Shown here one piece after another: positions 2 through 45,529 of a stretch of 64,000 nucleotides of DNA. The stretch is from assembly GCA_034432535.1 (NCBI GenBank), contig DAOUBR010000079.1, positions 20,290 to 84,289 of the forward strand, in the 5' to 3' direction. How positions within the stretch are numbered: the first letter of the stretch is position 1; every line of letters begins with the position of its first letter. A program made the position numbers and the translations under genes. The notes below the pieces were generated by a model, which did no database searches, was not told where the DNA came from, and saw nothing but the letters and a program-made list of their open reading frames with translations. The DNA is from Anaerolineales bacterium (GTDB lineage Bacteria > Chloroflexota > Anaerolineae > Anaerolineales > Villigracilaceae).

Positions 2-280
2 GGCGGGCTGCAACTGGTGGAGTTTTTCCGCTTCACTTGAGGAACCTGCCGCGCGATGGCGCCCATAGTTCATGGGCTGGAAGCGAAGTATTACGGAAAA
101 ATCAAGTTCGTCTTTTTAGACGCGGACGACCTCGCCACGAAGAAATTTCAAAGCGAGCTCGGGTTTTATTACCAGCCGGAATTTTATCTGCTGGACGGGA
201 ACGGAAACGTGCTGAAAAAATTCGTAGGGTATGTTGAGCCGCAAGATTTTGAAGCCGAGTTCGCAAAACATTTGCCGTAG
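2..280 (+). CDS. thioredoxin-fold protein (5' end outside window) with in-frame TGA at first redox-motif position (T-U-G-T-C); candidate selenoprotein
   Basis: Frame 2 reads GGLQLVEFFRFT-TGA(38..40)-GTCRAMAPIVHGLEAKYYGKIKFVFLDADD...YLLDGNGNVLKKFVG. This matches the thioredoxin pattern VDFWAxWCGPCKxIAP...GKL...D, with the TGA at the first Cys. Hairpin GCCCAT/ATGGGC lies at 61..77. The ORF track starts only at the Met after the motif (56). Confidence 0.6.
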
Positions 281-6401: not shown

Positions 6402-9400
6402 CTACGGGACGGGGACATAATACTGAATGACGAGCTGCGGACGATACGCCGCAAGCGCTTCGCCGGAATAGAACTTGACGAGGTCGGCGACGAAGTTTCG
6501 ATTCGTCGGAAGCGAGAAGCGCAGGCGGAATTGAACGGTATCGCTCAATGGAAGCGCGGCTTTGGCGGAATTGATGAGCGGGGCGTTATACCACCCCCCC
6601 GAATCGGGAGTCTTGCCAACCACGCCCGCAACCGTATCCAGCGAGGGAAGCGCCTCAAAATCGCTCGTTTCCAGCCCTGGGCTGCCGCCGAATTGCGGGA
6701 CGGACATATTGACGAACAGGCTGCCGTGCGTCATGAAGGGGTTGCGACCGACCACGCCTGCGTTCTTCATCTTGAGCGTGGCGGAAGAAATGACCGCGCC
6801 AGCAGGCAGGTTAACCTGGAAGCTCAGCACGGAGCGATATTGCCGATTATCGGCGGAATCGCCCAAAAACAGGACGCTGTTGCGGTTCAAAGAACCGCCC
6901 GTCAGATTCAACGCGGAAGAAGACAAAATCCAGCCGTCTTGCAGGGGCGCGACGGGGGTCAGGGTCGTCATGCGTTGCACGGCAACTTGCAGCGAGCCGT
7001 TCACATAGTTGATGGTATAGTTTCCGCCCGCGTTCGCGCCGGAGCAGATAATATCGTAGCGCGCCACGCTGGAAACGCTGGCGCCGGGAGCGGAACAAGT
7101 CGGCGGAGTGAAGCCCGGCGTGAAGAAGCTTTCGCCCGGGACAAAGCCGGTAACTGTGTAAGTGTAAACCGGCAGGCTCGTGTTGACGTAGGCAATTTTG
7201 TTATCCGCCGTAACGGTAAGCAAAGCGGGGGAAATGGTCGCCGAGTCGGTATTTTGCGTTGGCGAGCCGTAATTCGCGCCGTTGTTGCCGTCGTTGATAT
7301 AAGGCGTCAGCGTGCGCGCGCCGGCGTTTTTCGAATCGAAAGTCTGATAGACCGAATCGCCGGCAAAGAGCAATGTGGAGCAATCGGTCGCGCCGTTGCA
7401 CAGCGGAGAGACAGCCGAAGCGTTGGAGCCGTCGTAGTTTTTATTCGCGCCGCTTGCGACGGAATCGACGGAGGCAATAAACGCCTGATTCGGCGGGCAG
7501 GAAATATCGGGGTCAATATCCGCGTTGTAAGCGGCGCAGCCCGCCGCGCTATACGGGTAAATATCGGCGGTCAGCCCGATGATCGGCGCGTCGTCGAGCC
7601 TGTAATAGACGGCGTCCGTCCCGGTGAGCGTCCCGCTGGCGGAGACCGGCTTGTCCGCGCCGACGTGCTTATCTCCAAGGACGCCTTCGGTCACGGAAAC
7701 GCTCACGTTGGAATAGGCAGGCAAGACGCCGTCAAAGGTGAGCGCGCCGGGGGTCACTGTCACCGTATTGGTTCCGTTGTATAGGCGGCTGAAAGCGGTC
7801 AAGCCGCCGGTGATGGTCAGCGTGCGTTTGGTAATTTCGCCGGTAGATACGGAAACGGTCGTAATTTGATAATTATTTCCGCCGTTGTCGTCGTCAATCG
7901 GGAGAGCGACGATTTGCATTTCCTTGCCCGTCCCGATGTTCATATTGTCAAATTTCTGCTCCCACGTCCCGGGGGCGTCGCCCGCGACCAGAGAGCCGGA
8001 GGTAATCACCGGGGTTTCGTCGGAAGAATCCGTTCCGTCAAATTCTTTGGTATCCGCGACGGAAGAAACAGTCAGCGGGCGTCGAGCGACGGTCAGGTTC
8101 GCGCTGCCTGCGCTGGGCGAATAAGTAATATCGCCGGCGAAGGAGGCGACGACTCCCTCGCCCGGGTTGGAAGCGAAATACTCGCCCGCGTTCACTCTGA
8201 GCAAAACGCCGGACAGCGTGGCGACGCCGCTTGCGTTGGTGACCGCGCTGCCGAGGCTCGCGCCGTTGTTGAAGTTGAAATCCACCGTGCGCCCGACGAC
8301 GGGCAACCCGTTGGAGAGCAAAGTAGCCGAAAGCGAGACGGTATCGCCGTAGGTCGCATTAATCGCGCCGACCGTCAAACCCGTCGGCGGCAGTTCGCCG
8401 ACCACAAAATCGGAAGAAGCGCCGAGCGTGGTAAAGCCAGCGTTCACCGCGACGCTCATCATCGGGTCGGCGACGGAATCGCGCGCGTAGTTCGCCAGCT
8501 CAGGGACGAACCATGGCGGCGTGGTGGAAGGCGTGGTCTGATATTTGCGAACCATAAAGGCGGAGGGATTCGCGCCGGCGTCTATGTGCGCGTTTTGGAA
8601 GCCAAACTCAGCCTGAAAAGCGGAAGAGACGAAGCCGCCGCCCGTCGTTAACTTCCAGTAACGATTGACGTTTTTCAGTTGATTAATGCCGGAGGTGGCG
8701 ACCGCGGCGTGCTCGGTAGGCGTGACGGGAACGGCGGCGGTTACGAAGCCGGCCGTCGTCACGTTCATATTGGAGACGATGAGCGGGCGATAACCGTTCA
8801 CGTCGCCGACGGCGAAGTTGAAAGATTGCCCGGCGCCGACGTTGAAGGATTTCTTCAACTGGGCGACGTAGATATACGAGCGTTCATTGCCGCCGATAAG
8901 CGTTCCGCCTGCATTAATGGCGATGACGATGGAAGAAGAGCTGCCCGTCATCACGCCGTTCGTCAGGTTGAGAACGTCTGTGATGGTGGTATTGCCTTTG
9001 ACAAGCAAGCCCGCGCCTGTGTTGTTGACCGTCAGATTGGGGAAGGTTGTCACGCCGTTGATGGTCTGCTGCGCGGCGCCATTGAAGACCACCGTTCCGG
9101 TTCCGGTGAAAGAGCCGTACGTCCCGCGCGTCCAGTTGCCGCCGACGGTCAGGGTTTTATCCGCAATGTTTAGCGCGCCGACGTTGCTAGTGGCGCTGAG
9201 CGTCAGGTTGCCGGGCACGTTTAAATTGTCTTGAAGGTTGACCACCGCCGTGCCGTTGATGTTGAAGTTGCCGTTGATGATCGTGCCGGCTGGGATAGTT
9301 TTGATTCCGCTGCCGGCGAAGGTCAGCGTGTAGTAAGTGGATTCCTTAACCGTCTGACCTCCAGCCAGATTGTAAGTGACCGTGTTGCCCGGCGTGGAAG

Positions 9401-12400
9401 CGTTAATGGTCACGCTCGTCGCGCCAATATCGGAAAATTGGATATTCAAGACGCCCGTCGCGCCCTGAGTCAGAGTTCCGTTGCCGGTGAGCGAGCCGCC
9501 CGCCAGAGTCAGCCCCGCGGCGTTGTTATTTGTCACGTTTACGCCGGAGGCAATATCAAGGTTGACGATGGAAATGGCTTTAGAGCCGCCAATGGCTTGG
9601 TCGGCGGTTTCGAAGTAGTAAACGCCCGCGCCGGGAGTGAAAGAGCCGCTGGCGGAGCTGTTGTTGATCAGCCCGCCGCGCAGATGAACGTCCGTGTTGC
9701 CGGAGTTGGTCCACTTGCCCGCCGTTCCGCCAATCGTCACCGCGCCGATGTAGGTCTTGGTTCCCGTCGCGCTGGCGTGAACGAGCGAACCGTTCACGGT
9801 GGTCGTTCCGTTCACGGTGATGTTATGGTCGGCTACCGTGAAGGTTCCGGAGTTAATGACCAGATTGCCGCCGATGTTCAGGTCCGCGCCGGTGGCTGCG
9901 GCGGAGGTCGTCAACGTCAGATTGCCATTGACGGCGGAGACGCCCGTCAGGGTCTTCGCGCCCGCGCCGCTCAAGCCGAGATGGTGATAAGTTCCCGCCT
10001 TGACGGTTTGCGCCGCCGCGCCGGTGTAATTCACCGTGTTCGGGTTCGCCGAAGCGTCGAACGCATTGATTGTATTCGCGCCAGAAATGTTCAAGACCGC
10101 GTTGAGGCTTTGGGTTAGCCCGCCGGCGCCGCTCAGGTTGGTCACGGTCAAGCCGTTAGCGAGATTGTTCGTCAGCGTAATTCCGTTTACCGTGACGGCG
10201 CCCATCGTCACGGCTTTCGTCCCGCCGATAGTCTGGTCGTTGGTATTGAAGGTGTAAACCGCCGTCGTGCCGCCGGTGAAAGTTCCGCCCACAGTCAAGC
10301 CGCCCTGGAAGGTGATGGGCGCGTTGGCGGTATTATCCCAGGTTCCCGTCACCGTGACCAAGCCTTTATAGACTTTGCTTCCCAAGTTGCTGGTGTGCGA
10401 TAGTTTGCCGTTGATGGTAGTCGGTCCGTCCACCTCGATATTGAAGGCGCCGACTCCAAAGGTGATTCCCGTTCCAATCGTCAAACTATCCTGCACGACA
10501 ACGTTGCCGGATAACGCTTTGGTGTAAGCCGTCGTACCGCTGAAACGATAGACTTCCAGTTTGTAATAGGTCAAGCCGAGAATGGGCTGGTTGGAATTGC
10601 CGTCGTAGCGGATCGTGCCGCTTTCGGGGTCCAAAACTCCCGCGCCGGGAGTCGTGGAGCCGGAGAAGTAAACCGAGCTGCTGCCGCCTTCGAGCATTCC
10701 GGCAGTCATCGTCCACGAGCTAAAACGATGCGTAAATCCCGCGCCGAGATTGAGCGTTCCGCTGATAATTTCCAGGGGACCGCGGTTGGCGGTGGTGGTG
10801 GCGCTGGGCGCGCCGAAATCTCCGGTCAGGGTCGCCACGCCGCCGGTTTTTTGCACGCGGAGCGCTCCAGATTGGGTGTTCAGCCCGGCGATGGCTTGCG
10901 CGCCCGCGCCGTTCAAGATCAGGTTCAAGCGCCCGACTTCCGCGTCGCCGGAGTCAATGTAATCTCCGCCGAGGTTGACGGAGGCGTAGCCGGAAGTCCC
11001 GGAAGTCACGAGCGTTCCGCCGCCGTTATCGAGGTTTCCGGTCAGGGTCAGGGTGGAGCTGGTCGCCAGAGTCAAATAGCCGGGGTCGCCGCCGACGTAA
11101 TTGGTCAGGCTGGCGGCGGAAATTTGCGCCCCTGCCGCGTTGCTGGCGCTTCCGGCGTTTATCAGGCTGCCGCCAATATTGACAATCGAATCGTAGAAAG
11201 CGACGGTTCCAATGTTGGTAAAATCTCCGTTCACCGTCAGATGATAATTGGCTGCCGCGCTGGCGCCCGTATCGAACTTGGAGTTCGCGTCTTGCACGAG
11301 GAAGTTCCCCGCGATGACTTTATCGCCGTTGAGCAGCACCTTGCGCCCGTTTTTGACGATGACGCCGCCGGAGCCGTTGAAAGGCGAGACCCATTCCGGT
11401 CCTGCGGTGTACGCCGTCGTGCCGGTCATGTTGTATTGCAAGGTCGCGTTTGGTCCGTAGGTCGGCGCCGCGGAGACCGCCGCGCTGCCTTCAATAGATA
11501 AGACGCCGTTCACCGTAACGCCCGCCGTGGTCTTAAGGTTCGCCGCCGCGCCGCCCAAAGTCAGGTTGTGATAAGTTCCTGGCTGAACGGTCTGCGCGCC
11601 GGAGAGGTTATAGATCACGGCGTTGCCCGCCGCGCTGGCGTCGAGAGTCGGGGCCAGGCTCGCCGCTTGCAGCGTCAGCGTGGCAGTCGCGCCCTGCGTT
11701 AAAGTTCCCCCTCCGTTCAAGCTGGAGGTCACGGTCAGGCTGCCGTTGTTCGTGTAAGTTCCCGTGATATTTGCGTTGGCGACCGAAAGCGTTCCGTCAA
11801 AGTTTTTGCCCGCGCCAGCAAAGGTCAGGGCTCCCGTTCCGGAGGTAAACGTCCCGTTATTGGTCAGGTTGCCGTTAAAAGTGACAGCGACAATTTTGGC
11901 GCCGTCCGTGCCGTCGTTGTCAAATTCGCCGCCGGCAGCGACGGTGAAATCGCCGTTATAAGTTTTCGTCCCCGTCGCGTTGTTGTGCTGTAATTTTCCA
12001 TCGGTAATTGTGGTTGCCCCGTCCACCTGAATATTCGACTGTCCAATTTGCAAGACCGGTCCGCCCCCATAGGTGGAATTAATCGTCAAATCGCCCTTTA
12101 CCCACAGCGTCTTGCCGCTGACGTTATACGCAGAATAGGCGGAGCCTTGATAGGAGAGGTTGCCGTTGACGGTAAAGTTATCCGAAGGCAATATCTTATT
12201 TCCGCTCCCCGCCAGGACAAGGTTATGGTAAACGAGGATAGTTAATTTAAGCGTCTGGTCGTCCGCTTTCTCGTAAAACACCGTATTGGAGTTTGTCGTT
12301 GCGTCAAAAGTCGTCAGCGTCCAATCTGCATTGCCAAAGCCGGCATGGAACTCGCTTGCCGTTCCTTGCGTTAAGGAGCCGCTTCCTTTAAGGGAAGCCG

Positions 12401-13472
12401 CAATATTTAAAATCCCGTTGTTTGTGTAGGAACCGTCAATCGTCACATTGGGAATAGAAACGACGCCGCTAAAAGTTTTACTGGCGCCGGTAAAAGTATG
12501 AACGCCGCTATTCGCGCGATTAGGCGTGGTTAAGATGTTTCCGTCCGTATCCATCGTTCCATTGTTCGTGAAATTGCCGGCAAAGGTGAACGCTTCCGCG
12601 ACTCCCTCTTGCCACATGCCGCCGCTTTCAATCGTTACGTCCCCGTTAAACGTCTTCGTTCCGGCAGTGTTGGAAAAGTTAATCGCCCCGTTCACGGTCG
12701 TCGCGCCGTTTACGGTTAAGTTCACGCCGGGGACGTTCAAATTTCCGTTGACCGTTAAGTTCGTAACCGTCGTAGCGCCGTTAAGAGTCTTCCATCCCGT
12801 TCCGTTAATTTGCAGGTTGTAATACGTCAAAGCCGCGACGGTCTGGTCTCCCGAAGCGCCGTAAATCGCCGTGCTGGTTCCGGCGTTGAAAGCGCCGTTG
12901 TTCGTTAAAGAGCCGTTGAGCGTGAGCGTGGTCGCGCCCGCGTTGAAGGTCGTCCCCATTTCAATGGAGAAAGCGCCGTTCACGACGATTGCGCCGCCCG
13001 CCGTTTTCGTCCCGCTGCCGGCGGTGGAAAGATTGTAATACGTCAAAGCCGCGACGGTCTGGTCTCCCGAAGCGCCGTAAATCGCCGTGCTGGTTCCGAA
13101 GTTGAAAGTCCCGCTGTTGGCGAAAGAGCCGTTCAAGGTCAGGGTGGAAGCGCCCGCGTTGAAGGTCCCGTTGTTCGTCAATCCGCCCGTCACGACAAGG
13201 GCGTAGTCAGCCGTGTTTAACGTCGCGCCAGATTGAATCGTCAAGCTGTTCACCGTCGTATTATCCGTAAGCGTCACCGTATCGCCGGCGACAATGGTCA
13301 CGTCGTCGGTCGCGGCGGGAACGCTTCCGCCCGACCACACGGCGGTATCGCTCCAAAAGCCGCCGCCCGTTCCATTGCTGGAAACGCTCGCCGCGTACGC
13401 CGGCGCCGTCAGCGTAGCCGCCAGCAGGATAGCGATAAGAGCCGATAAGATTCTAAAAAATTGAGATTTCAT
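6402..13472 (-). CDS. giant secreted repeat protein (about 2356 aa): beta-helix-like repeats, Ig-like and YDG/MBG-like modules, DNRLRE-like C-terminal domain; putative adhesin or surface protein
   Basis: Signal peptide MKSQFFRILSALIAILLAATLTAPAYA at ATG 13472. About 1500 aa of G/T/N-rich periodic modules (..TFN.G..T..Y.G.G.QTV...TYYNL.L.G.G.KT..). Later come Ig-like segments and YDG/MBG-like repeats (LYNGTN, NYTINYVNGSLQV). The last about 190 aa (6405..6980) carry SADNRQYRSVLSF. Confidence 0.85.
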   Translation of the reverse strand: MKSQFFRILSALIAILLAATLTAPAYAASVSSNGTGGGFWSDTAVWSGGSVPAATDDVTIVAGDTVTLTDNTTVNSLTIQSGATLNTADYALVVTGGLTNNGTFNAGASTLTLNGSFANSGTFNFGTSTAIYGASGDQTVAALTYYNLSTAGSGTKTAGGAIVVNGAFSIEMGTTFNAGATTLTLNGSLTNNGAFNAGTSTAIYGASGDQTVAALTYYNLQINGTGWKTLNGATTVTNLTVNGNLNVPGVNLTVNGATTVNGAINFSNTAGTKTFNGDVTIESGGMWQEGVAEAFTFAGNFTNNGTMDTDGNILTTPNRANSGVHTFTGASKTFSGVVSIPNVTIDGSYTNNGILNIAASLKGSGSLTQGTASEFHAGFGNADWTLTTFDATTNSNTVFYEKADDQTLKLTILVYHNLVLAGSGNKILPSDNFTVNGNLSYQGSAYSAYNVSGKTLWVKGDLTINSTYGGGPVLQIGQSNIQVDGATTITDGKLQHNNATGTKTYNGDFTVAAGGEFDNDGTDGAKIVAVTFNGNLTNNGTFTSGTGALTFAGAGKNFDGTLSVANANITGTYTNNGSLTVTSSLNGGGTLTQGATATLTLQAASLAPTLDASAAGNAVIYNLSGAQTVQPGTYHNLTLGGAAANLKTTAGVTVNGVLSIEGSAAVSAAPTYGPNATLQYNMTGTTAYTAGPEWVSPFNGSGGVIVKNGRKVLLNGDKVIAGNFLVQDANSKFDTGASAAANYHLTVNGDFTNIGTVAFYDSIVNIGGSLINAGSASNAAGAQISAASLTNYVGGDPGYLTLATSSTLTLTGNLDNGGGTLVTSGTSGYASVNLGGDYIDSGDAEVGRLNLILNGAGAQAIAGLNTQSGALRVQKTGGVATLTGDFGAPSATTTANRGPLEIISGTLNLGAGFTHRFSSWTMTAGMLEGGSSSVYFSGSTTPGAGVLDPESGTIRYDGNSNQPILGLTYYKLEVYRFSGTTAYTKALSGNVVVQDSLTIGTGITFGVGAFNIEVDGPTTINGKLSHTSNLGSKVYKGLVTVTGTWDNTANAPITFQGGLTVGGTFTGGTTAVYTFNTNDQTIGGTKAVTMGAVTVNGITLTNNLANGLTVTNLSGAGGLTQSLNAVLNISGANTINAFDASANPNTVNYTGAAAQTVKAGTYHHLGLSGAGAKTLTGVSAVNGNLTLTTSAAATGADLNIGGNLVINSGTFTVADHNITVNGTTTVNGSLVHASATGTKTYIGAVTIGGTAGKWTNSGNTDVHLRGGLINNSSASGSFTPGAGVYYFETADQAIGGSKAISIVNLDIASGVNVTNNNAAGLTLAGGSLTGNGTLTQGATGVLNIQFSDIGATSVTINASTPGNTVTYNLAGGQTVKESTYYTLTFAGSGIKTIPAGTIINGNFNINGTAVVNLQDNLNVPGNLTLSATSNVGALNIADKTLTVGGNWTRGTYGSFTGTGTVVFNGAAQQTINGVTTFPNLTVNNTGAGLLVKGNTTITDVLNLTNGVMTGSSSSIVIAINAGGTLIGGNERSYIYVAQLKKSFNVGAGQSFNFAVGDVNGYRPLIVSNMNVTTAGFVTAAVPVTPTEHAAVATSGINQLKNVNRYWKLTTGGGFVSSAFQAEFGFQNAHIDAGANPSAFMVRKYQTTPSTTPPWFVPELANYARDSVADPMMSVAVNAGFTTLGASSDFVVGELPPTGLTVGAINATYGDTVSLSATLLSNGLPVVGRTVDFNFNNGASLGSAVTNASGVATLSGVLLRVNAGEYFASNPGEGVVASFAGDITYSPSAGSANLTVARRPLTVSSVADTKEFDGTDSSDETPVITSGSLVAGDAPGTWEQKFDNMNIGTGKEMQIVALPIDDDNGGNNYQITTVSVSTGEITKRTLTITGGLTAFSRLYNGTNTVTVTPGALTFDGVLPAYSNVSVSVTEGVLGDKHVGADKPVSASGTLTGTDAVYYRLDDAPIIGLTADIYPYSAAGCAAYNADIDPDISCPPNQAFIASVDSVASGANKNYDGSNASAVSPLCNGATDCSTLLFAGDSVYQTFDSKNAGARTLTPYINDGNNGANYGSPTQNTDSATISPALLTVTADNKIAYVNTSLPVYTYTVTGFVPGESFFTPGFTPPTCSAPGASVSSVARYDIICSGANAGGNYTINYVNGSLQVAVQRMTTLTPVAPLQDGWILSSSALNLTGGSLNRNSVLFLGDSADNRQYRSVLSFQVNLPAGAVISSATLKMKNAGVVGRNPFMTHGSLFVNMSVPQFGGSPGLETSDFEALPSLDTVAGVVGKTPDSGGWYNAPLINSAKAALPLSDTVQFRLRFSLPTNRNFVADLVKFYSGEALAAYRPQLVIQYYVPVP
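12817..13098 (-). repeat. recent intragenic tandem duplication (216-bp period) inside giant gene
   Basis: 65-bp stretch TTGTAATACGTCAAAGCCGCGACGGTCTGGTCTCCCGAAGCGCCGTAAATCGCCGTGCTGGTTCCG is identical at 12817..12882 and 13033..13098. It encodes STAIYGASGDQTVAALTYYNL twice. Confidence 0.85.
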
Positions 13473-13586
13473 GAAGTCCTCGCTTTCGTACAATGACTCA
13501 CGTAAGATTAAAAATAACAATTTCATGACAGTTTTTATTCCGCTTATATTATACATTCTAGTCCCTCGATAAAATCCACAGTTTTG

Positions 13587-16917: not shown

Positions 16918-18225
16918 TTACGGCTGCTTTGGCAGTTTACTCACCAGGACTTTATCCACGCGCCGACCGTCCATATCCACCACCTCGAAGCGATAGCCTT
17001 CATGCTCGAAATAATCGCCCGCCTGCGGCACGCGCCCCAGCAGCGTCATCATAAATCCGCTGAGCGTTTCGTATTCGTCCTCGTGCGGCAGGTTGTTGAA
17101 ATGGAATAACTCCTTGAACTCGTCCGCTTCCAACATGCCGTCGAGCAGCCACGAGCCATCCTGGCGCTGCGTGGCTTGCGGCTCTTCAAAGCCGATGGCG
17201 CCGACGATTTCTTCGAGGACGTCGTTGACGGTCAAAATGCCTTGCACGCCGCCGAATTCGTCCACCACCAGAAAGAGCTCGACGTTTTTTTCTTTAAACA
17301 GTTCCAGCGCGCGCGAGGCGAACATGGTTTCTGGGATGAAGTGCGCCGGCTTGAGCAGGTTTTTTAAATCGAGAGGTTGGCTCGAAAGGCAAGCCGCCAG
17401 TAAATCGCGCGATTCCGCCACGCCGAGAATATTTTCGAGCGAATCGTCGCGGACGGGGAAGCGCGAATAGGAGCAGCTTTCAATCTTCGCGCGGATTTCT
17501 TCGGGGCTGTCGTTCACGTCCAGCCAGACGACTTCGGTGCGCGGGGTCATCAATGAATAGACGCGCGAATCGCCCAGGCTGAAGACTCCCTCCACCATGT
17601 CTTGCTCGGCTTCTTCGAAGACGCCCGCTTGCGTGCCTTGGTCAATCAGCAGTTGAATTTCTTCTTCCGTCACCAGCGGCGCGGCGCTTTCTTTCACGCC
17701 GAATAATTTCAAAACCGCTTCCGTCGAGGCGCTGAGAAACTTGACGAAAGGCGAAAAGATTTTTGAGAAGAAGAGCATGGGCGCAGCCACCGCGGCGGAG
17801 ACGCCTTCCGGGTCGCGCAGCGCCAGCCGTTTGGGAACCAGCTCGCCCAGCACCAACGAAAGGTAGGTCACCGGCAGCACGCCGACGAGCAGCCCGATGA
17901 TTTCGGAATACGCTGAGAGCGCGGGGTAGCGCGAAAGTTCAGCGTGAAGCAGCGCGCCCAGAGTCGCGCCGGTTAAAGCGCCGACGAGCAGGTCTATGGA
18001 GGTAATTCCAATTTGAATGACGGATAAGAACTGATTGGGGTTTTCAATGAGTTTTAAAACCACGCCCGCGCGCGGGTCGCCTTTGTTTTGCTGGTTTTGC
18101 AAGCGCGTCTTACGGGCGGAAAGCAGGGCGGCTTCCGCCATTGCCAGCGCGCCGTTCAACAGCAGCAACAAGGCAATGGCAATAAGTCCGCCCGTCAAGT
18201 CGGTTTCTATGGGGCGTTCCGGCAT
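16918..18225 (-). CDS. CNNM/TlyC-family hemolysin-like protein (DUF21-CBS pair-CorC_HlyC)
   Basis: Four N-terminal TM helices, CBS pair, and a C-terminal CorC/HlyC transporter-associated domain, 435 aa. Confidence 0.85.
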   Translation of the reverse strand: MPERPIETDLTGGLIAIALLLLLNGALAMAEAALLSARKTRLQNQQNKGDPRAGVVLKLIENPNQFLSVIQIGITSIDLLVGALTGATLGALLHAELSRYPALSAYSEIIGLLVGVLPVTYLSLVLGELVPKRLALRDPEGVSAAVAAPMLFFSKIFSPFVKFLSASTEAVLKLFGVKESAAPLVTEEEIQLLIDQGTQAGVFEEAEQDMVEGVFSLGDSRVYSLMTPRTEVVWLDVNDSPEEIRAKIESCSYSRFPVRDDSLENILGVAESRDLLAACLSSQPLDLKNLLKPAHFIPETMFASRALELFKEKNVELFLVVDEFGGVQGILTVNDVLEEIVGAIGFEEPQATQRQDGSWLLDGMLEADEFKELFHFNNLPHEDEYETLSGFMMTLLGRVPQAGDYFEHEGYRFEVVDMDGRRVDKVLVSKLPKQP

Positions 18226-18230
18226 GGAAT

Positions 18231-18395
18231 TTATTTTACCAGAGTATCAGAGTTCTTCCTTTCAACTTTTTTTTCGAGGTTGCGCAAGCGTCGCTCAACG
18301 TTGAAGTAATAACGCCGCAGCCAGAAGGGGACGATCAACAACGCCAGAGCCAGCAAGCAGGTGACTGAAAGCTCAAGAGAACTGACGTAAAACAT
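18231..18395 (-). CDS. small (54 aa) single-TM protein, hypothetical
   Basis: MFYVSSLELSVTCLLALALLIVPFWLRRYYF... The ATG overlaps the selD stop (TAATG). Confidence 0.35.
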   Translation of the reverse strand: MFYVSSLELSVTCLLALALLIVPFWLRRYYFNVERRLRNLEKKVERKNSDTLVK

Positions 18396-19456
18396 TAAGC
18401 CCTGACCTCGATTCCTGCGCCGGCGCGGACTTCGCCCACCACCCAAACGGCTTGATCGAGCTCGCCGGCGCGGGCTTGAAAGGCTTCCAGTTTTTCTTGC
18501 GGAACTCCCAGGAGCAAGCCGCCGCTGGTTTGCGGGTCGAAGAGCAACATGCGGGCGGGTTCGCCGAGCGCTTCGTCAAAGCGCGCCCAGTCGCCGAAGT
18601 TTGCCATGTTGTCGAACGCGCCGCCGGGGAAGAAGCCCTTTTCGGCATAATGCCGCGCGCCTTCCAGAAACGGCAGTTTGGAAAATTCAATTCGCAGCGC
18701 AACGCCGGAAGCTTTCGCCATTTCCAGGGCATGTCCGAGCAAGCCAAAGCCGGTAATATCCGTTCCGCCGCGCAAGCCCATTTCAGCGGCGAGTTGCCCG
18801 GCGGCTTTGTTCAAGTGCAGCATCCACAGAATCGCTTCTTGAATGTCGCCTTCGCGCGCCTGCTGCTGTTTGAGCGCGGTGGTGGTCACGCCGCAGCCAA
18901 GCGGCTTGGTGAGGACCAGCGCGTCGCCGACTCGCAAGCCGTTTTTGCCGATGATTTTTTGCGGATGAACCATGCCCAAAACCATCAGCCCATACTTCGG
19001 CTCTTTGTCTTTGACGGTATGTCCGCCGGCGATGACTACGCCGGCTTCGCGCGCCTTTTCCGCGCCGCCGCGCAAAATTTCGCTGGAAATTTCGGACGGC
19101 AAATGATCAGGCAGCGCGGCGATGTTTAAGGCGAGGAAAGGCGTCCCACCCATCGCGTAGACGTCCGAAAGGCTGTTCGCCGCCGCTATCGCGCCGTATT
19201 CGTAGGGCGTATCCACCACCGGGGTGAAGAAATCGGTCGTGGCGACCAGCGCCTGCTCGTCGCTAAAACGCCAGATCGCCGCGTCGTCGAGAGATTCAAG
19301 CCCGACGAGCAGGCTGGGATAATCGGCGGGGTTAAAAATATTTTGCAAAGGGCGCAGCACCTGCGCCAACGCTTCCGCGCCTAGTTTGGAAGCTCAGCCG
19401 GCGCAAGCGGACAAGGTCGTGAGGCGCACTTCGCGCCCGGATTGTGGAATTGCCAT
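18395..19456 (-). CDS. selD: selenide, water dikinase (selenophosphate synthetase) with in-frame UGA (Sec) in the N-terminal catalytic loop
   Basis: From ATG 19456 the frame reads MAIPQSGREVRLTTLSACAG-TGA(19396..19394)-ASKLGAEALAQVLRPL..., aligning to E. coli SelD [24 protein letters not shown] with TGA at Cys17. The rest is an AIR-synthase-like SelD body. The ORF track truncates the gene to the TTG at 19369. Two hairpins follow the TGA. Confidence 0.8.
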
Positions 19457-19481
19457 TTTTGCTCTTGGTGAATGAATCTGG

Positions 19482-20501
19482 TTACGGAATCGGGGTCGGC
19501 GCGGCGGCTGGCAATGGGAGAATGAATTGATTGCCGCTGGGGATGAAGATGGTCTGCACGCCGGGGGCGAGCTTTAAGATGTATTGATATTGCAGCAGTT
19601 CGGGCGTGAGCGATTCCGCCAACAGGCGGTTGGCTTCGGCTTCGGCTTTCGCCTGAATCAGGCGCGCTTCCGCCGCGCCTTGCGCGGCAATCACCACCGC
19701 GTCCGCCTGCCCTTGCGCCACCTGCCGCGCTTGCTCGGCTTCCTGTTTCTTTTGCTCAACGACAAATTTCGCCTGCTGCGCTTGCTGTTCGGCAATTTGC
19801 TTCTGCTCGACGGCGAGCGCGTACTCGTCGCTGAAACGGATGTTGCGCAGCACAAAGTCGCGCAGCACAAGGTCGTTTGCGGCGAAGACGCGCTCCAGTT
19901 CCTGCGTAATCAGGGCTTCCATCTCGGCGCGCTTGGAGCTGACGATTTCCTCCACGCCGTATTGCGAAGCCACGTCGCGGATCACTCCGCGCGCTTGCGG
20001 GCGCACCAGCCCGTATTCGTAACCGAAGCGCCACGTGCGGTATAAATCCACCGCGTTGGCAGGGTTGATGGCGTAAATGACGGAAGCGTCCACGTACACT
20101 TGCTGCCCGTCCTTCGTCCGCACCTGAATAGAATCGTCGCCCGATTTCGCGCCTTCGCCTTCCGCCGAAGACATGGTGTAAGTTTGATTCAAAATGGAAT
20201 AGCGTTCGACGCGCTCGGCGAAGGGGATAATCCAATGCAAGCCGGCGCCCAGCGGATCGGGGCGAATGCCGCCGTCGCCAACGACGGTGACGACAATCGC
20301 CAGTTCGTCCGGCTCGATGAAGACCAATCCGGCGCCGACCGTGGTGAGCAGCAGCGCGGCGACCAGCAAAATCAGCGCCGCCGTGCCGAGTCCCTTTGTG
20401 GGCTGTTTGCGCGCCGCGCGAGTTGCCACGGCGACCAGCGCGCCGATAAAGCCCAGCCACGCCAGCAAAGCGATTCCTTGAATAATTCCAGAAATATTCA
20501 T
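19482..20501 (-). CDS. SPFH/band-7 (prohibitin/HflC-like) membrane protein
   Basis: N-terminal TM segment, SPFH domain, and a C-terminal coiled coil rich in A/E/Q. Confidence 0.85.
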   Translation of the reverse strand: MNISGIIQGIALLAWLGFIGALVAVATRAARKQPTKGLGTAALILLVAALLLTTVGAGLVFIEPDELAIVVTVVGDGGIRPDPLGAGLHWIIPFAERVERYSILNQTYTMSSAEGEGAKSGDDSIQVRTKDGQQVYVDASVIYAINPANAVDLYRTWRFGYEYGLVRPQARGVIRDVASQYGVEEIVSSKRAEMEALITQELERVFAANDLVLRDFVLRNIRFSDEYALAVEQKQIAEQQAQQAKFVVEQKKQEAEQARQVAQGQADAVVIAAQGAAEARLIQAKAEAEANRLLAESLTPELLQYQYILKLAPGVQTIFIPSGNQFILPLPAAAPTPIP

Positions 20502-27741: not shown

Positions 27742-27984
27742 CTACTGCCGAACCACCGTCCGCAAGGGAATATCCGCCACCAGACGCTGCTCCCGCCCGT
27801 CGCGCTCCAATTCGATGCGCACCGCTTCGGGGTCAATATCAATGTAATTGGAAATCGCCTTCAAGAGGTCGTTTTTCAACGCTTCCAACTGCGCGGGCGA
27901 TAAATCCGTGCGGTCGTGAATCAACACCAATTGCAGGCGCTCCTTCGCGCTGGCGGCGCTGCGTTTGCGAGAAAAGAAGCCCAT
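27742..27984 (-). CDS. minE: cell division topological specificity factor MinE
   Basis: 80 aa with N-terminal MGFFSRKRSAASAKERLQL, typical of MinE; adjacent to minD. Confidence 0.9.
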   Translation of the reverse strand: MGFFSRKRSAASAKERLQLVLIHDRTDLSPAQLEALKNDLLKAISNYIDIDPEAVRIELERDGREQRLVADIPLRTVVRQ

Positions 27985-27987
27985 ATC

Positions 27988-28785
27988 TCATTTCCTCCCG
28001 GTCAGCCTTTGAATGGCGCTCCACAAGCCGCCCTGCTGATCGAGTTCCATAAAGGGAACGTCGCGCCCTTGAAGGCGTTGGGCGATGTTGCGAAACGCTT
28101 GCCCGGCGCGGCTCTTCGGGTCGGCGGCGACGGGCGCGCCGCGATTTGAACCGATGATGACGCTCTCGTCTTCGGGGACGACGCCGATGAGTTTAATGCC
28201 GAGCAAATCCAAAACGTCTTCCGCTGAAAGCATGTCGTTATTCCGCACCAGAACCGAATTCAAACGGTTGAGAATGAGGGCGGGCGAGCCTTTTTCCTCC
28301 GCCTCAAGAATGCCCACCACGCGGTCGGCGTCGCGCACGGCGCTGACTTCCGGGTTGGTGACGACCAGCACGCGGTCGGCGGGGGCGATCGCGTTGCGAA
28401 ATCCGCGCTCAATGCCGGCGGGAGAATCAATAATCACGTAATCCGTCTCCTCGCGCAGTTCGTCGCACAGGCGAATCATATCCGAAGGGGAAACGGCGCT
28501 CTTATCGCGGGTTTGCGCCGCGGGGATGAGATGCATTTCGGGGTAACGTTTGTCGCGTATCATCGCCTGCCTGAGTTTGCAGCGCCCCTCGATGACGTCC
28601 ACCAAATCGTACACGATGCGATTTTCCAGCCCCATCACCACGTCGAGGTTGCGCAACCCAATATCGCCGTCAATGCAGACGACTTTTTTCCCGTCCATCG
28701 CCAGCGCGTTGGCGATGTTGGCGACGGCGGTGGTTTTGCCCACGCCGCCTTTTCCCGAAGTTATGGTAATCACTTGTGCGGTCAT
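27988..28785 (-). CDS. minD: septum site-determining ATPase MinD
   Basis: Deviant Walker A SGKGGVGKTT and a C-terminal amphipathic tail; 265 aa. Confidence 0.95.
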   Translation of the reverse strand: MTAQVITITSGKGGVGKTTAVANIANALAMDGKKVVCIDGDIGLRNLDVVMGLENRIVYDLVDVIEGRCKLRQAMIRDKRYPEMHLIPAAQTRDKSAVSPSDMIRLCDELREETDYVIIDSPAGIERGFRNAIAPADRVLVVTNPEVSAVRDADRVVGILEAEEKGSPALILNRLNSVLVRNNDMLSAEDVLDLLGIKLIGVVPEDESVIIGSNRGAPVAADPKSRAGQAFRNIAQRLQGRDVPFMELDQQGGLWSAIQRLTGRK

Positions 28786-36437: not shown

Positions 36438-36824
36438 ATGGAGACCAAAACGTTTGAAACGCCCGCATTATACGGCGACCATCACGTTATGGAAGCGAGG
36501 CGCATTTTGCTGGAACTAGAGGGGGTGAGCGACGTGTACGCGAGCAGCGCATTTCACGTCATTGAAATCACCTTCGACCCGGAAAAAGTCAAAGCGGAGG
36601 AAATCACCGCGCGACTGGAAGCCGCCGGCTATTTAGGCGAAATTCCCGTCGCGGCGGAAAGCGGCATGGCGGTGGAAAAGAAAGAAGGCGACGGCGTCTT
36701 CCGTCATACTGCCGTGTACGAAACGGTCAAGGGGACGATTTCTTTTGCGCAGCGCGTGAGCTATTCGGGACGTCCGCTTTGGCCCTGTCCCGGCATGGAG
36801 CCGATTAAGGTCGTCAAAGAGTGA
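36438..36824 (+). CDS. uncharacterised 128-aa protein, HMA/ferredoxin-like N-terminal fold without CxxC; first gene of the acs operon
   Basis: Strong SD AAGGAGAGG. The N-terminus (..ALYGDHHVMEARRILLELEGVSDVYASSAFHVIEITFDPEKVKAEEITARLEAAGY) has a beta-alpha-beta-beta-alpha-beta pattern with GDHH where HMA domains carry CxxC. The C-terminus has WPCPG. Confidence 0.6.
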   Translation: METKTFETPALYGDHHVMEARRILLELEGVSDVYASSAFHVIEITFDPEKVKAEEITARLEAAGYLGEIPVAAESGMAVEKKEGDGVFRHTAVYETVKGTISFAQRVSYSGRPLWPCPGMEPIKVVKE

Positions 36825-36850
36825 ATTCAGGTTTAGAGATAGAGAGGCGC

Positions 36851-38860
36851 ATGATGGCAAAAAAACGAGAAATTAAAGATTACTCCACCGACCCGGCAGC
36901 GCAACAAATGCTTATCCGGGCGGAGGAATTGGGCGTCGGCACGGCGTTCACCAGAGCCGACAACATGGTCCCATGCAACATTGGCGGCGCAGGCATGTGC
37001 TGTAAACAATGCGGTATGGGACCGTGTCGTTTAACCAAGAACGGCGACGTAGGCGTGTGCGGCGCGACCATTGACACCATTCAGGCGCGCAACCTCACCC
37101 GCGCCATCGCGGCAGGCGGCGCGGCGCATTCGGACCACGGGCGCGACATGGCGTTTCTGCTTAAAGCCGCCGCCAAAGGCGAAGCGGAAGGCTACGCCAT
37201 TCGAGACGTGGCGAAGCTGCGCATGGTCGCTTCCTATTACGATATTAAGATAGAAGGGCGCTCGCCGGAAGAGATCGCCATTGAGCTCGCAGATTTATAC
37301 ATCGCGCAGTTTGGGCAGCAAAGCGGAGAAATCGTCCCGATTAAGCGCGCGCCGAAAAAGCGGCAGAAACTCTGGCGCGAGCAAAAGGTCGTCCCACGCG
37401 GCGTGGACCGCGAAGTGGTGGAAGCGCTGCACCGCACGCACATCGGCGACGACCAGGAGCCGGAGCATATTCTTCATCACGCCATTCGCACGGCGCTGGC
37501 GGACGGCTGGGGCGGCTCGATGATTGCCACCGATATTTCGGATATTCTGTTCGGCACGCCCGCGCCCATTTTGGGGCAAGCCAACCTCGGCGTGATTAAG
37601 CGCGAGATGGTGAACGTGGTCGTTCACGGGCACGAGCCTTCGATGAGCGAAATGCTGGTGGCCGCCTCGCAGGACCCGGAAATTATCGAATACGCGCGCG
37701 CGGCGGGGGCGCAGGGCATTCAGCTTTCGGGAATTTGCTGCACAGCAAACGAGATTCTCATGCGGCAGGGCATCCCTGCGGCGGGCAACTTCCTGCATCA
37801 GGAACTTTCAATCATGACCGGCGCGGTGGAAGCCATGGTGGTGGACGTGCAGTGCATTATGCAAGCGTTGGTCGGGCTGGCGCAGAACTTCCACACCAAA
37901 ATTATCACCACTTCGCCGAAGGTGAAAATCAAGGGGGCGACGCACATCGAATTCGACGAACATAAGGCGTTCACGGTCGCCAAGCAAATCCTCAAGACGG
38001 CGATTGACAATTTCAAGAATCGCGCGCCGGAAAAGGTGCTGATTCCGCAGATTAAAGAAGACGTGATTCCGGGTTTCTCGCACGAGTACATCAACTACAT
38101 GCTCGGCGGCTCCTACCGCGCTTCCTTCCGCCCGCTGAACGACGCGATTATGAGCGGGCGCATTCGCGGCGTGGCGGCGATTGTCGGCTGCAACAACCCG
38201 CGCTCCTCGCAAGATTACCTGCACAACAAAGTGGTGAAAGAGCTGTTAAAGCAGGACGTGTTGGTGGTGCAAACGGGATGCGGCGCGATTGCGGCGGGCA
38301 AGCTGGGGCTGCTGCTCGGCGAAGCGGGCTTGAGCGAAGTCGGCAGCGGCTTGCGCGAAGTGTGTGAAACTATCGGCATTCCGCCCGTGCTGCACATGGG
38401 TTCGTGCGTGGACAACACGCGCATCCTCACCGTCTTAACGCAAATGGCGGAGACGGGCGGCTTGGGCGAGGACATTGACCAGATTCCCGCCGTCGGTCTC
38501 GCCCCCGAATGGATGAGCGAAAAAGCGCTCGCCATTGCGACGTACTGCGTCGCCTCCGGCGCCTACGTCATCTTCGGCGGCGCTTCGCCCGTAGGCGGCA
38601 TGCCCGACCGGGTGAACGATAGCGACATTGTGCTGCGTTACATCAGCGAGGGCTGGGAAAAACTCTACGGCGGCAAACTGGAATTCATCCCCGACCCGGA
38701 CGAGATGATTAAAGCCACGCTTGCGCACATTGACAAGAAGCGCGCGGCGCTCGGTCTCCCCGCATGGGAGCCGAATAAGTTTGGGCGCAGCGGCGACGCC
38801 AAAATGAACGAACTCGAAGCCTTGCCGCTGGAAGCGAAGCGCGAAGCGATTTATGGATAG
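36851..38860 (+). CDS. cooS: anaerobic Ni-Fe-S carbon-monoxide dehydrogenase catalytic subunit
   Basis: N-terminal cluster motifs CNIGGAGMCCKQCGMGPCR and VCGAT. Length and C-cluster region are typical of CooS/AcsA. Confidence 0.95.
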   Translation: MMAKKREIKDYSTDPAAQQMLIRAEELGVGTAFTRADNMVPCNIGGAGMCCKQCGMGPCRLTKNGDVGVCGATIDTIQARNLTRAIAAGGAAHSDHGRDMAFLLKAAAKGEAEGYAIRDVAKLRMVASYYDIKIEGRSPEEIAIELADLYIAQFGQQSGEIVPIKRAPKKRQKLWREQKVVPRGVDREVVEALHRTHIGDDQEPEHILHHAIRTALADGWGGSMIATDISDILFGTPAPILGQANLGVIKREMVNVVVHGHEPSMSEMLVAASQDPEIIEYARAAGAQGIQLSGICCTANEILMRQGIPAAGNFLHQELSIMTGAVEAMVVDVQCIMQALVGLAQNFHTKIITTSPKVKIKGATHIEFDEHKAFTVAKQILKTAIDNFKNRAPEKVLIPQIKEDVIPGFSHEYINYMLGGSYRASFRPLNDAIMSGRIRGVAAIVGCNNPRSSQDYLHNKVVKELLKQDVLVVQTGCGAIAAGKLGLLLGEAGLSEVGSGLREVCETIGIPPVLHMGSCVDNTRILTVLTQMAETGGLGEDIDQIPAVGLAPEWMSEKALAIATYCVASGAYVIFGGASPVGGMPDRVNDSDIVLRYISEGWEKLYGGKLEFIPDPDEMIKATLAHIDKKRAALGLPAWEPNKFGRSGDAKMNELEALPLEAKREAIYG

Positions 38861-38906
38861 CCGAACAGACTGGCAATGAGCGACGCTAGACCAGGAGAGT
38901 ACATCC

Positions 38907-41174
38907 ATGTCACGATATATAGCTACCCGCGCCATTCGGGGCGCAAACGCGCTCGTCACCGAAGCGGAGTTGATGTTGAACAAAGCGCTCGCGGAAAAAG
39001 GACCCGAAACGCCGGTGACTTTCCCCAACACCGCCTACTACCTGCCGACCATTTTAGGCATGACCGGCAAAGCGGTGGAAAAACTCGGCGACTTGAAGCC
39101 GGCGATGGAATACGCGCGCAATTTACTGCATCCCCTTCCCGCTCAAAAACGTTGGACGCCCTATCTCGGCGAGACGCTCGATTCCGGCATAGCGACGCTG
39201 CTCGCCGCCGAAACCATCGAAGCGATTCGCTTCGTTTATGGCTTGCAGCCCGAAGCCGCGCCGGGCTTTACGCTGGCGGGCGGAACCAACTACGGCGAGC
39301 AAAACGGACACGGTCACTTAAACGGGCCGATTGACGATATTCAACTCCGCTCGTGGGGCATTCAATTGGTGGATGGACGCATGCCCGGCTTCGCGGCGAT
39401 TGTCGGCTGCGCGAAATCGAACGAAGTGGCGGTGAAAATCGTCCGCGAATTGCAACGGCGCAACATCCTCACCTTCCTTTCGGGCAACGTAAACGGCAGA
39501 AGCGTCATTCACCAGCTGCAAGAAGAAGGCGTGGAGCTCGGCTACGATACCTACACCGTCCCCTTCGGCACGGATACCATCTCCGCCATTTACGCGCTGG
39601 GCTTCGCCACCCGTTCCGCGCTGACCTTCGGCGGCTTGAAGCCCGGTCAAGCGCGCGAGATTCTGCTTTACAACAAAGAGCGTGTTTTCGCCTTTGTGCT
39701 GGCTTTGGGCGAGGTGGACGATTTGAAATACGCCGCGGCGGCGGGGGCGATTAACTTCGGCTTCCCAGTCATCGCCGATACGGTCATCCCCGAAATTCTG
39801 CCCACGGGCGTCACCACCTACGAACATGTCGTCTCTATGCCGTTCAATCAAATCGAAGGCAAGGACGATTTAGAACGCGCCGAAAGGCTGGTGCAAAAGT
39901 GCATTGAAGTGCGCGGCGTCAAGGTCAAAGTCTCCAACGTGGACGTGCCTGTGCCGTACGGCTCGGCGTTTGAAGGCGAAGTGGTGCGCAAGGCGGATTT
40001 GCGCGTCGAGTTCGGCGGCAAGCACGCCCGCTGCTTCGAGTATTTGCAAATGGCGAAGTTGGATGAAATCACCGACGGCAAGATTCAAGTGATTGGTCCC
40101 GATTTCTCGCAGGTCCCGCCCCAAGGCGCGATGGACATGGGAATCGTCATCAAGGTCGCCGGGCGGCAAATGCAGCAGGATTTCGAGCCGGTGCTGGAAC
40201 GTCAGGTGCATTACTTTATCAACGGCGCGAGCGGCATTCAACACGTCGGGCAGCGCGATATTGCGTGGATTCGCGTCTCAAACAACGCGGCGGACAAGGG
40301 CTTCAACCTCGAGCACTTCGGCAAGATTCTGCACGCGCGCTTCCACGAAGACTTCGGCGCGATTGTGGACAAAGTGGAGGTGACGATCGTCACCGACCCG
40401 GCGCTGCACGCCGAATGGCTGGAAAAAGCCCGCGCGGCTTACGACTTCCGCAACAAGCGTCTCGCCGACCTGACCGACGACAAAGTGGAAGAGTTCTACT
40501 CCTGCACGCTGTGTCAATCGTTCGCGCCCAATCACGTTTGCGTGGTTTCGCCCGAACGGCTGGGCTTGTGCGGCGCGTATAACTGGCTGGACTGCAAAGC
40601 CTCGTATAGCATCAACCCGACGGGTCCCAATCAGCCCATCAAACTCGGCAAATTGATTGACCCGAAAAAAGGCTACTGGACCGGCACGAACGAATACGCC
40701 GCCATCGGCTCGCACGGCGTGGTGAACGAAGTGACGATGTATTCCATCATGGAAAACCCGATGACGGCTTGCGGCTGCTTTGAGTGCATCGTCATGCTCA
40801 TCCCCGAAGCCAACGGCGTGATGGTGGTCAGCCGCGAAGATACCAGCATGACTCCCGCGGGCATGACCTTCTCGACTCTGGCGGGCATCGCGGGCGGCGG
40901 GCTGCAAACGCCGGGCGTGATGGGCGTGGGCAAGTTTTATTTGCTCAGCCCCAAGTTCATCTCCGCCGACGGCGGCTTCAAGCGCATCGTGTGGATGTCC
41001 TCCGTGCTGAAAGAGACGATGGCGGACGAGCTCAAAGCCGTCTGCGAGCGCGAAGGCGACCCCGACTTCATGTCCCGTGTGGCGGATGGAAATGTCGCCA
41101 CCACTGTGGAGGAATTGCTCGCGTGGATGGAAGCGCACAATCACCCCGCGATGGCGATGGAGCCGATGTTTTAG
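38907..41174 (+). CDS. acsB: CO-methylating acetyl-CoA synthase (ACS alpha subunit)
   Basis: FPNTAYYLPTILG N-terminal motif and an A-cluster region with CTLCQSF..C...C.. and MTACGCFEC; 755 aa. Confidence 0.95.
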   Translation: MSRYIATRAIRGANALVTEAELMLNKALAEKGPETPVTFPNTAYYLPTILGMTGKAVEKLGDLKPAMEYARNLLHPLPAQKRWTPYLGETLDSGIATLLAAETIEAIRFVYGLQPEAAPGFTLAGGTNYGEQNGHGHLNGPIDDIQLRSWGIQLVDGRMPGFAAIVGCAKSNEVAVKIVRELQRRNILTFLSGNVNGRSVIHQLQEEGVELGYDTYTVPFGTDTISAIYALGFATRSALTFGGLKPGQAREILLYNKERVFAFVLALGEVDDLKYAAAAGAINFGFPVIADTVIPEILPTGVTTYEHVVSMPFNQIEGKDDLERAERLVQKCIEVRGVKVKVSNVDVPVPYGSAFEGEVVRKADLRVEFGGKHARCFEYLQMAKLDEITDGKIQVIGPDFSQVPPQGAMDMGIVIKVAGRQMQQDFEPVLERQVHYFINGASGIQHVGQRDIAWIRVSNNAADKGFNLEHFGKILHARFHEDFGAIVDKVEVTIVTDPALHAEWLEKARAAYDFRNKRLADLTDDKVEEFYSCTLCQSFAPNHVCVVSPERLGLCGAYNWLDCKASYSINPTGPNQPIKLGKLIDPKKGYWTGTNEYAAIGSHGVVNEVTMYSIMENPMTACGCFECIVMLIPEANGVMVVSREDTSMTPAGMTFSTLAGIAGGGLQTPGVMGVGKFYLLSPKFISADGGFKRIVWMSSVLKETMADELKAVCEREGDPDFMSRVADGNVATTVEELLAWMEAHNHPAMAMEPMF

Positions 41175-41229
41175 ATTGCGGACGCCATTTTCGAGAGAGA
41201 TTCTAACCATCCATAGCCGAATATTCGCG

Positions 41230-41255
41230 CTATCAGACTCGCAACTATCAGACTC
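41230..41255 (+). repeat. two copies of CTATCAGACTC 15 bp apart, just upstream of the acsD RBS
   Basis: Copies at 41230..41240 and 41245..41255. SD AAGGAG follows at 41258. Confidence 0.6.
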
Positions 41256-41269
41256 TCAAGGAGCGCATT

Positions 41270-42214: not shown

Positions 42215-42223
42215 GGAGGAACT

Positions 42224-43540: not shown

Positions 43541-43550
43541 AGAATTAGCG

Positions 43551-43587: not shown

Positions 43588-43596
43588 TCCTCCCCC

Positions 43597-45528: not shown

Positions 45529-45529
45529 A

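Follow-up and report, generated by a model that had tools for sequence, protein, structure and literature searches.

The selD gene in a 64,000-nt stretch of DNA from an Anaerolineales bacterium (GenBank assembly GCA_034432535.1, contig DAOUBR010000079.1, positions 20,290 to 84,289 of the forward strand; the whole stretch is hereafter called the window, and all coordinates are given in its own numbering) raises the question of whether an in-frame TGA near the 5′ end of the gene is a stop codon or a codon for selenocysteine (Sec). A first-pass annotation of the window, made from the sequence alone, had proposed that this selD is itself a selenoprotein gene which had been mis-truncated by open reading frame (ORF) calling. 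Based on comparative sequence analysis, we consider it highly probable (roughly 0.92) that Sec is inserted at the UGA, with a conserved hairpin downstream of it (H2) acting as the selenocysteine insertion sequence (SECIS).

The selD gene extends upstream of its called starts

On the minus strand, the frame of selD (selenide, water dikinase) is open from an ATG at 19454..19456 to a TAA stop codon at 18395..18397, save for one TGA at 19394..19396, and these coordinates match those first read for the gene. Translated through the TGA, the full-length gene (18395..19456) comprises 353 codons including the UGA, with the ATG lying 20 codons before it, and its product reads MAIPQSGREVRLTTLSACAG, followed by the sole in-frame TGA and then by ASKLGAEALAQVLRPL... 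The N-terminal extension AIPQSGREVRLTTLSACAG (19397..19453, minus strand), which was overlooked by ORF calling, supplies the beginning of the selenium-binding loop.

The identity of the gene was examined with hidden Markov models and by comparison with proteins of known structure. With Cys put at the TGA, the translated selD scored 363 bits against TIGR00476 (cut-off 125), covering profile positions 1-309 of 311, and 346.3 bits against NF002098 (cut-off 299). Both AIRS domains, the N-terminal PF00586 and the C-terminal PF02769, are present on P0001, the public gene call for the window's own selD, and on all homologues listed. In phmmer searches against PDB, the extended selD product aligned end to end with SelD of Escherichia coli (3u0o, 6e-70) and of Aquifex aeolicus (2yye, 1e-69), and in these alignments a Cys stands across from the TGA in each case, within GAGCGCK (3u0o) and within SSGCAAK (2yye), which upholds the earlier placement of the UGA at the catalytic Cys17/Sec position next to the conserved Lys. 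Provided that translation begins at the ATG at 19456, the loop reads CAG-(TGA)-ASK, with the conserved Lys three residues past the putative Sec codon. The E. coli residue that matches the TGA is Cys17, which is reportedly essential together with Lys20, and the natural Aquifex enzyme carries Sec at this position. As judged from its sequence, the selD of the window is a full-length selenophosphate synthetase with every testable feature of the family, and its predicted activity is the ATP-dependent formation of selenophosphate from selenide.

Both called starts of the gene lie downstream of the TGA (19358..19369, minus strand): the mechanical ORF list begins selD at a TTG (19369..19367; 324 aa), and the public call P0001 begins it at a GTG (19360..19358; 321 aa, MLRPL...). 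The mis-truncation that had been suspected is plain from these positions. A similar shortening is seen among the relatives, in that 117 of the best 120 selD homologue clusters are 302-334 aa long, as compared to about 352 aa for the full-length protein; judged by their lengths, they are cut off at the UGA. Taken at face value, the calls amount to another explanation, namely that the TGA is a real stop codon and that the locus yields an N-terminally truncated SelD from TTG 19369 or GTG 19360, or is a decaying pseudogene. Automatic calling of ORFs and of genes returns just such a product, and the fact that no Sec machinery was seen in the window would agree with it. A SelD truncated in this way would, however, be devoid of the loop in which both the conserved Lys and the catalytic Cys/Sec reside (Cys17 and Lys20 were reportedly essential in mutant work on E. 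coli SelD), and the alternative starts are situated inside a conserved hairpin, H2, described below.

The UGA and the peptide preceding it are conserved

A genome-collection scan, for which the peptide patterns were chosen outside the TGA site, retrieved 80 orthologous selD loci from different metagenome-assembled genomes (MAGs) of Anaerolineales/Chloroflexota (69-78% amino-acid identity); together with the selD of the window they make up the 81 genes referred to below. The TGA is present at the homologous codon in 80/80 of these loci, and 79 of the 81 genes have an ATG exactly 20 codons before it. This ATG is directly preceded by a stop codon in several relatives, which fixes the start of selD. 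The 20 codons upstream of the UGA are free of in-frame stops in all 81 genes, and their mean pairwise identity is 0.88 at the first codon position, 0.96 at the second and 0.52 at the third, a signature that points to purifying selection at the protein level; synonymous variation within the extension (19397..19453) is normal. The placement of the UGA in the orthologues is far beyond what chance would produce. Among the larger ORFs of the window, of which there are 52, 15 terminate in the same triplet, so TGA is not reassigned genome-wide. These patterns bear directly on the truncation explanation: a pseudogene would not hold a clean frame over so many lineages with the TGA kept in 80/80, and protein-level selection on the codons before the TGA, with an ATG fixed 20 codons upstream, is at odds with a stop codon at this place. 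We regard a truncated or decaying selD as extremely improbable.

The alignment with Sec- and Cys-type SelD sequences that the first-pass annotation had suggested adds evidence for Sec at the UGA, because the TGA matches a Cys in it. Three full-length orthologues of the Cys type (P0013, P0072 and P0086; 68-69% identity, loop CAG-C-ASK) have TGC or TGT where the selD of the window has TGA. Two Cys-type contigs (L083 and L084) share with the window the neighbourhood Band_7-selD or Band_7-selD-CNNM, and a third (L085) is too short to show neighbouring genes. On this alignment, the UGA-type and Cys-type selD genes form a classical Sec/Cys pair.

A conserved hairpin downstream of the UGA

Two hairpins had been described after the UGA in the first-pass annotation. 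The second of them, H2 (19351..19367, minus strand), has a 7-bp stem, GGCGCAG/CUGCGCC, and a loop G-U-G (19360..19358). If nucleotides are counted from the U of UGA, as is done throughout this section, H2 occupies nt 30-46; its stem base lies 26 nt past the UGA and its loop begins 33 nt past it. H2 alone has a folding energy of -11.3 kcal/mol (z = -3.1; 0 of 200 shuffles), and the fold over 71 nt shows no greater stability than its shuffles (z = +0.30).

Of the 81 UGA-type genes, 79 retain H2, and each of its pairs is formed in 80 or 81 of the set. Compensatory changes were observed at pair 31-45 (A-U/G-C/G-U), at pair 33-43 (G-C to U-A) and at pair 36-40 (G-C to A-U), and one compensatory change is a non-synonymous replacement (Arg to Ser) in which the pairing is restored. 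In the loop G37-U38-N39, the G and the U are invariant and N varies freely. When H2 was evaluated jointly with a mini-hairpin adjacent to it (H1′, see below), pairing amounted to 99.0% of cells (93.8% in shuffles), the covariation score was 0.229 (0.125 in shuffles, 0 of 500), and doubly changed cells numbered 28 (7.4 in shuffles); on pairing, covariation and double changes the two elements were better than 500/500 shuffles, and all slid controls collapsed. The selection acting on this segment is also visible in the codon usage, for which we computed synonymous codon entropy on conserved codons of four-fold or greater degeneracy: the entropy is 0.95 bits in codons 22-36 versus 1.56 bits elsewhere (Mann-Whitney p = 5e-4), and within this region the stem codons have about 0.4 bits, the loop codons (27 and 33) and the first post-stem codon (36) 1.4-1.9 bits. 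In the Cys-type orthologues, 3-4 of the 7 pairs of H2 are broken in 3/3, and the G-U of the loop is lost in 2/3.

The model of bacterial SECIS elements (bSECIS) specifies a loop of 3-9 nt, a stem of 4-16 bp, a spacing of 16-37 nt and a minimum free energy (MFE) of no more than -7.5 kcal/mol, with a G within the first two loop positions, usually N1-G-[G/U]-N-N2 (PMC13188914). H2 falls inside these ranges with its 3-nt loop G-U-N, its 7-bp stem, its spacing of 33 nt and its energy of -11.3 kcal/mol. With this fit, its covariation and its conservation, the SECIS-like character that had been ascribed to H2 is well founded. Rfam returned 0 gathering hits in the whole window, which speaks neither for nor against a SECIS, and a permissive Rfam scan of 19300..19470 gave only a chance match to a snoRNA on the opposite strand (E = 0.82).

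The other hairpin of the first-pass annotation, hairpin 1 (GCUUCC...GGAAGC, 19371..19393, minus strand), directly follows the UGA, and it might be imagined to be a functional part of the SECIS together with H2. For the sequence of the window, the MFE structure contains both hairpins (nt 1-46, -19.7 kcal/mol), and hairpin 1 is the MFE structure in 22/81 single-sequence folds. The comparative data do not bear this out: of its pairs (nt 4-9 with 21-26), two are informative, joining third-codon positions, and these are formed in only 29/81 and 62/81 genes, and the other four are uninformative, being set by the amino-acid sequence. On no measure does hairpin 1 surpass its shuffles, the figures being 285 of 500 in percentage paired and 214 of 500 in covariation. 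A competing structure, the mini-hairpin H1′ (19368..19381, minus strand; 5 bp and an NGAN tetraloop, abutting H2), is mutually exclusive with hairpin 1 and is favoured both by the RNAalifold consensus of 40 representatives, which consists of H2 and the adjacent H1′ (nt 16-20 with 25-29), and in 49/81 single-sequence folds. The observation of two hairpins after the UGA stands insofar as both exist in the window, but hairpin 1 did not hold up as a conserved element, and a role for it in the SECIS is unlikely.

H1′ is predicted from the alignment and is weak in the window itself, where it contains two G-U pairs. Its pair C18-G27 joins two third-codon positions (CG 74, UA 4, UG 2), and codons 26 and 29, which belong to it, have a synonymous entropy of 0.41 and 0.38 bits as compared to a gene mean of 1.5. 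The predicted structures suggest that H1′ probably sits between the UGA and H2. Since it is largely kept in the Cys-type orthologues, H1′ is less diagnostic. H2, supported over 500/500 shuffles in the structure and covariance check that had been proposed for the region after the UGA, remains the candidate SECIS.

A second UGA-containing gene in the window

The first-pass annotation had linked selD to a thioredoxin-like gene at the beginning of the window as a further UGA gene. Its 3′ part is located at 2..280 (plus strand; the 5′ end is beyond the window), with a TGA at 38..40 in the motif U-G-T-C, and in frame 2 it reads ...LQLVEFFRFT, then the TGA, then GTCRAMAPIVHGLEAKYYGKIKFVFLDADD...KHLP. 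With Cys at the TGA, the protein scored 39.9 bits against Pfam Thioredoxin (cut-off 23.5), and the TGA corresponds to the first Cys of the C-x-x-C motif. The whole gene is found on a near-identical contig (L082, 6033..6497, minus strand), including a lipoprotein-type signal peptide, and there the gene callers have broken it into two genes of 74 aa. A metagenome scan retrieved 37 thioredoxin-like relatives; the TGA is kept in 35/35 alignable close homologues, and the sequence upstream of it is conserved.

A candidate SECIS hairpin follows this UGA as well (GCCCAU-AGUUC-AUGGGC, 61..77, plus strand; -7.8 kcal/mol, z = -2.6). Its stem is retained in 27/27 sequences with two compensatory changes, and G31 and U32 of the loop are invariant. 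The RNAalifold consensus shows a small hairpin next to a 7-bp hairpin with a G-U-U triloop; the small hairpin is a prediction, its positions being invariant and constrained by the amino-acid sequence. The conserved TGA and the conserved hairpin after it bear out the earlier linkage, and they make the thioredoxin-like gene a second candidate selenoprotein gene. It resembles the Sec-containing thioredoxin-like proteins and thiol:disulfide oxidoreductases described from Geobacter, Anaeromyxobacter and others (PMC1794560) in the thioredoxin fold and in a UGA that comes first in C-x-x-C, and differs from them in its lipoprotein-type signal peptide.

L082 and another contig (L081) are Logan contigs from run SRR7903765; they are near-identical to the window and overlap its two ends. 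In the thioredoxin-like gene, one amino acid or more (K to R) sets them apart from it, and therefore the SRR7903765 sample contains a closely related strain.

Search for the Sec machinery and decoding of the UGA

The first-pass annotation had stated that selA, selB and tRNA-Sec are not visible in the window, and scans for tRNAs, Rfam families and protein profiles were all negative, in agreement with that statement. With ARAGORN the window gave no tRNA at all, and tRNA-Sec was likewise missing from 60 related loci, although the program might overlook the unusual 8/4 tRNA-Sec that has been reported for Chloroflexi (PMC5389517), and Rfam tRNA-Sec had no match in the window. NCBIfam and Pfam profiles, run on every window ORF of 400 aa or more and on most of the shorter ones, gave no match to SelA, SelB or SelU, and neither the G1 motif of SelB nor the pyridoxal-phosphate-binding lysine motif of SelA was found in 724 kb of fetched loci. 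No Sec machinery was detected past either end of the window (contigs L081 and L082), in the +/-3 kb selD flanks of 80 relatives, or within +/-10 kb of selD in two relatives with long contigs (L123 and L124). When the window was searched for further genes interrupted by TGA, and for a TGA with a GGUNC-loop hairpin after it, only selD came up. A literature search on the Sec machinery specifically in Anaerolineae yielded nothing specific. So in this clade selD is not clustered with selA, selB or selC.

Some of these results weigh against the decoding of the UGA as Sec with H2 as the SECIS: selA, selB and tRNA-Sec were not seen in the window or the fetched flanks, and H2, the stem base of which is 26 nt past the UGA, stands towards the upper limit of the published 16-37 nt. 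The hairpin of E. coli fdhF lies at about 11 nt past the UGA, compared to 26 nt for H2. On the other side, an active Sec trait is supported, at the level of sequence comparison, by the two UGA genes, which are independent of each other, are both conserved and resemble each other in the apical motif, and Chloroflexi have been reported to possess selenoproteins (PMC1794560). We infer that selA, selB and selC are present in this genome.

The UGA might also be translated, yet not as Sec, either by a tRNA-Cys with a UCA anticodon (a system of the selC* type, as described in some Deltaproteobacteria; PMC5389517) or by near-cognate read-through. The opal codon of selD in Desulfomonile tiedjei offers a precedent, in that a special tRNA-Cys can insert Cys there and SelD is still active (PMC5389517), and nothing in the window tells which tRNA reads the UGA. 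The conserved hairpin with its apical G-U, however, agrees with the SelB-dependent bSECIS model; the second gene has its UGA at a U-x-x-C redox position, as is typical of selenoproteins; and the related lineages that use Cys have a plain TGC/TGT codon and have lost the hairpin. Moreover, the phyla from which selC* systems are reported to date are other ones, and it is tRNA-Sec that has been reported in Chloroflexi (PMC5389517). Taken together, Cys insertion or read-through seems very improbable, and insertion of Sec remains our preferred reading of the UGA.

For the decoding of the UGA as Sec we adopt the established bacterial mechanism. By analogy with it, SelB carrying Sec-tRNA(Sec) would bind the apical G-U of H2 when the UGA is reached and would deliver Sec there in competition with RF2, and the catalytic residue of the N-terminal loop of SelD would be a selenocysteine encoded by the UGA at 19396..19394. 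Because SelD makes the selenium donor for the synthesis of Sec-tRNA(Sec), a SelD of the Sec type would need its own product, a positive-feedback arrangement known for Sec-type SelD.

Comparison with known Sec-type SelD and SECIS elements

Among the selenoprotein families of prokaryotes, Sec-type SelD is described as ranking second in how widely it occurs, and as one of two families that are thought to maintain the Sec trait (PMC13188914, PMC1794560). The Sec-type enzyme is already well known, and the selD of the window is an ordinary further case that implies no new biology. It resembles the Sec-SelD of A. aeolicus (2yye/2zod), Haemophilus influenzae and D. tiedjei in family, fold and position of the UGA/Sec, and it shares with Sec-type SelD systems a SECIS inside the coding region just past the UGA. 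What sets it apart is its lineage (Anaerolineales, Chloroflexi) and its loop C-A-G-U-A-S-K, in which a Cys stands three residues ahead of the Sec; a functional distinction from known Sec-SelD is not visible from the sequence. E. coli SelD (3u0o), to which the likeness extends over the full-length alignment through the catalytic loop and over the AIRS/AIRS_C domains, has Cys in place of the UGA and no SECIS. With the bSECIS elements of the bSECISearch model and of E. coli fdhF and Moorella thermoacetica fdhA, H2 has in common that it is a stem-loop within the coding region with an apical G followed by U and a G-C closing pair. The fdhF hairpin contains a bulged U, which is absent from H2, and in comparison with known bSECIS elements a mini-hairpin appears to occupy part of the spacer of the window's selD. 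Slightly out of the ordinary are just three features: the length of the stretch between UGA and hairpin, this possible mini-hairpin, and a conserved gene for a membrane protein of 48-54 aa that overlaps the stop codon of selD with its start.

Genes surrounding selD and other genes of the window

The genes around selD are arranged in the order SPFH/Band_7, selD, a small ORF, and a CNNM/CorC-type transporter (16918..20501, minus strand), and the order Band_7-selD-CNNM is conserved over Sec-type orthologues (L123 and L124 among the loci viewed) and at least two Cys-type ones (L083 and L084). The small ORF (MFYVSSLELSVTCLLALALLIVPFWLRRYYFNVERRLRNLEKKVERKNSDTLVK, 18231..18395, minus strand; 54 aa) has one predicted transmembrane helix, and its ATG overlaps the stop codon of selD (TAATG). 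Its product has a basic tail at the C-terminus and a single hydrophobic helix, in which an L-T-C motif is conserved, and in about 50 of the 80 related loci a homologue of 44-52 aa comes immediately after selD. No Pfam family matched the small ORF, and 48/48 of its homologue clusters (Chloroflexi/Anaerolineales) are labelled "hypothetical protein".

A link of the small ORF to selenium would be pure speculation. One could nevertheless combine the observations on the two UGA genes and on the small ORF into a joint interpretation, in which the lineage has a Sec signal of its own with two parts and the small membrane protein, translationally coupled to selD, acts as an undescribed selenium-handling partner; we consider this quite unlikely as a whole. 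The signal, as suggested by the predicted structures, may be built from two directly stacked hairpins, a short one and one of 7 bp whose G-U-N triloop is closed by G-C, and this layout is predicted after the UGA both in selD and in the unrelated thioredoxin-like gene. If such a bipartite signal exists, the short hairpin may serve as a structural spacer that offsets the unusually long distance between UGA and SECIS.

At 36821..48017 (plus strand) the window contains a cluster for the carbonyl branch of the Wood-Ljungdahl pathway, with the catalytic subunit of an anaerobic carbon monoxide dehydrogenase (CODH), acetyl-CoA synthase (ACS) alpha/beta, a CdhD-like delta subunit, a gamma subunit, the corrinoid activator AcsV, a pterin-binding methyltransferase and a protein similar to methylene-tetrahydrofolate reductase. 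The gene content of this cluster suggests an acetogenic or CO-utilising member of the Anaerolineales. A gene for formate dehydrogenase did not turn up in the window.

Other genes of the window were noted in passing. A giant ORF of 2384 aa (6402..13556, minus strand) has weak Pfam matches only, G8 near its N-terminus and MBG_2 near residue 2150, and probably encodes a large surface or adhesin-like protein. The minD gene ends in TGA and is followed in the same frame by a minE-like ORF of 81 codons (…MGFFSRKRSAASAKERLQLVLIHDRTDL…; 27744..28785, minus strand); we rejected this pair as a UGA-interrupted gene, for these are two adjacent genes that share a frame by coincidence.

Implications

The main value of the finding lies in annotation. 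The SelD proteins that are called at such loci are without the catalytic loop, and because of this, automated metabolic reconstructions of Anaerolineales MAGs have a truncated SelD and overlook the Sec trait. The 81 UGA-type genes and the three Cys-type orthologues amount to a clean natural experiment, in which the hairpin persists where the codon is UGA and has been lost where it is one for Cys, and the selD orthologue alignment could be used to train models of bacterial SECIS elements. For the organism itself, a Sec-type SelD would mark it as a user of selenium, and this would fit the Wood-Ljungdahl (CODH/ACS) cluster in the same window, since acetogenic pathways often use a Sec-containing formate dehydrogenase.

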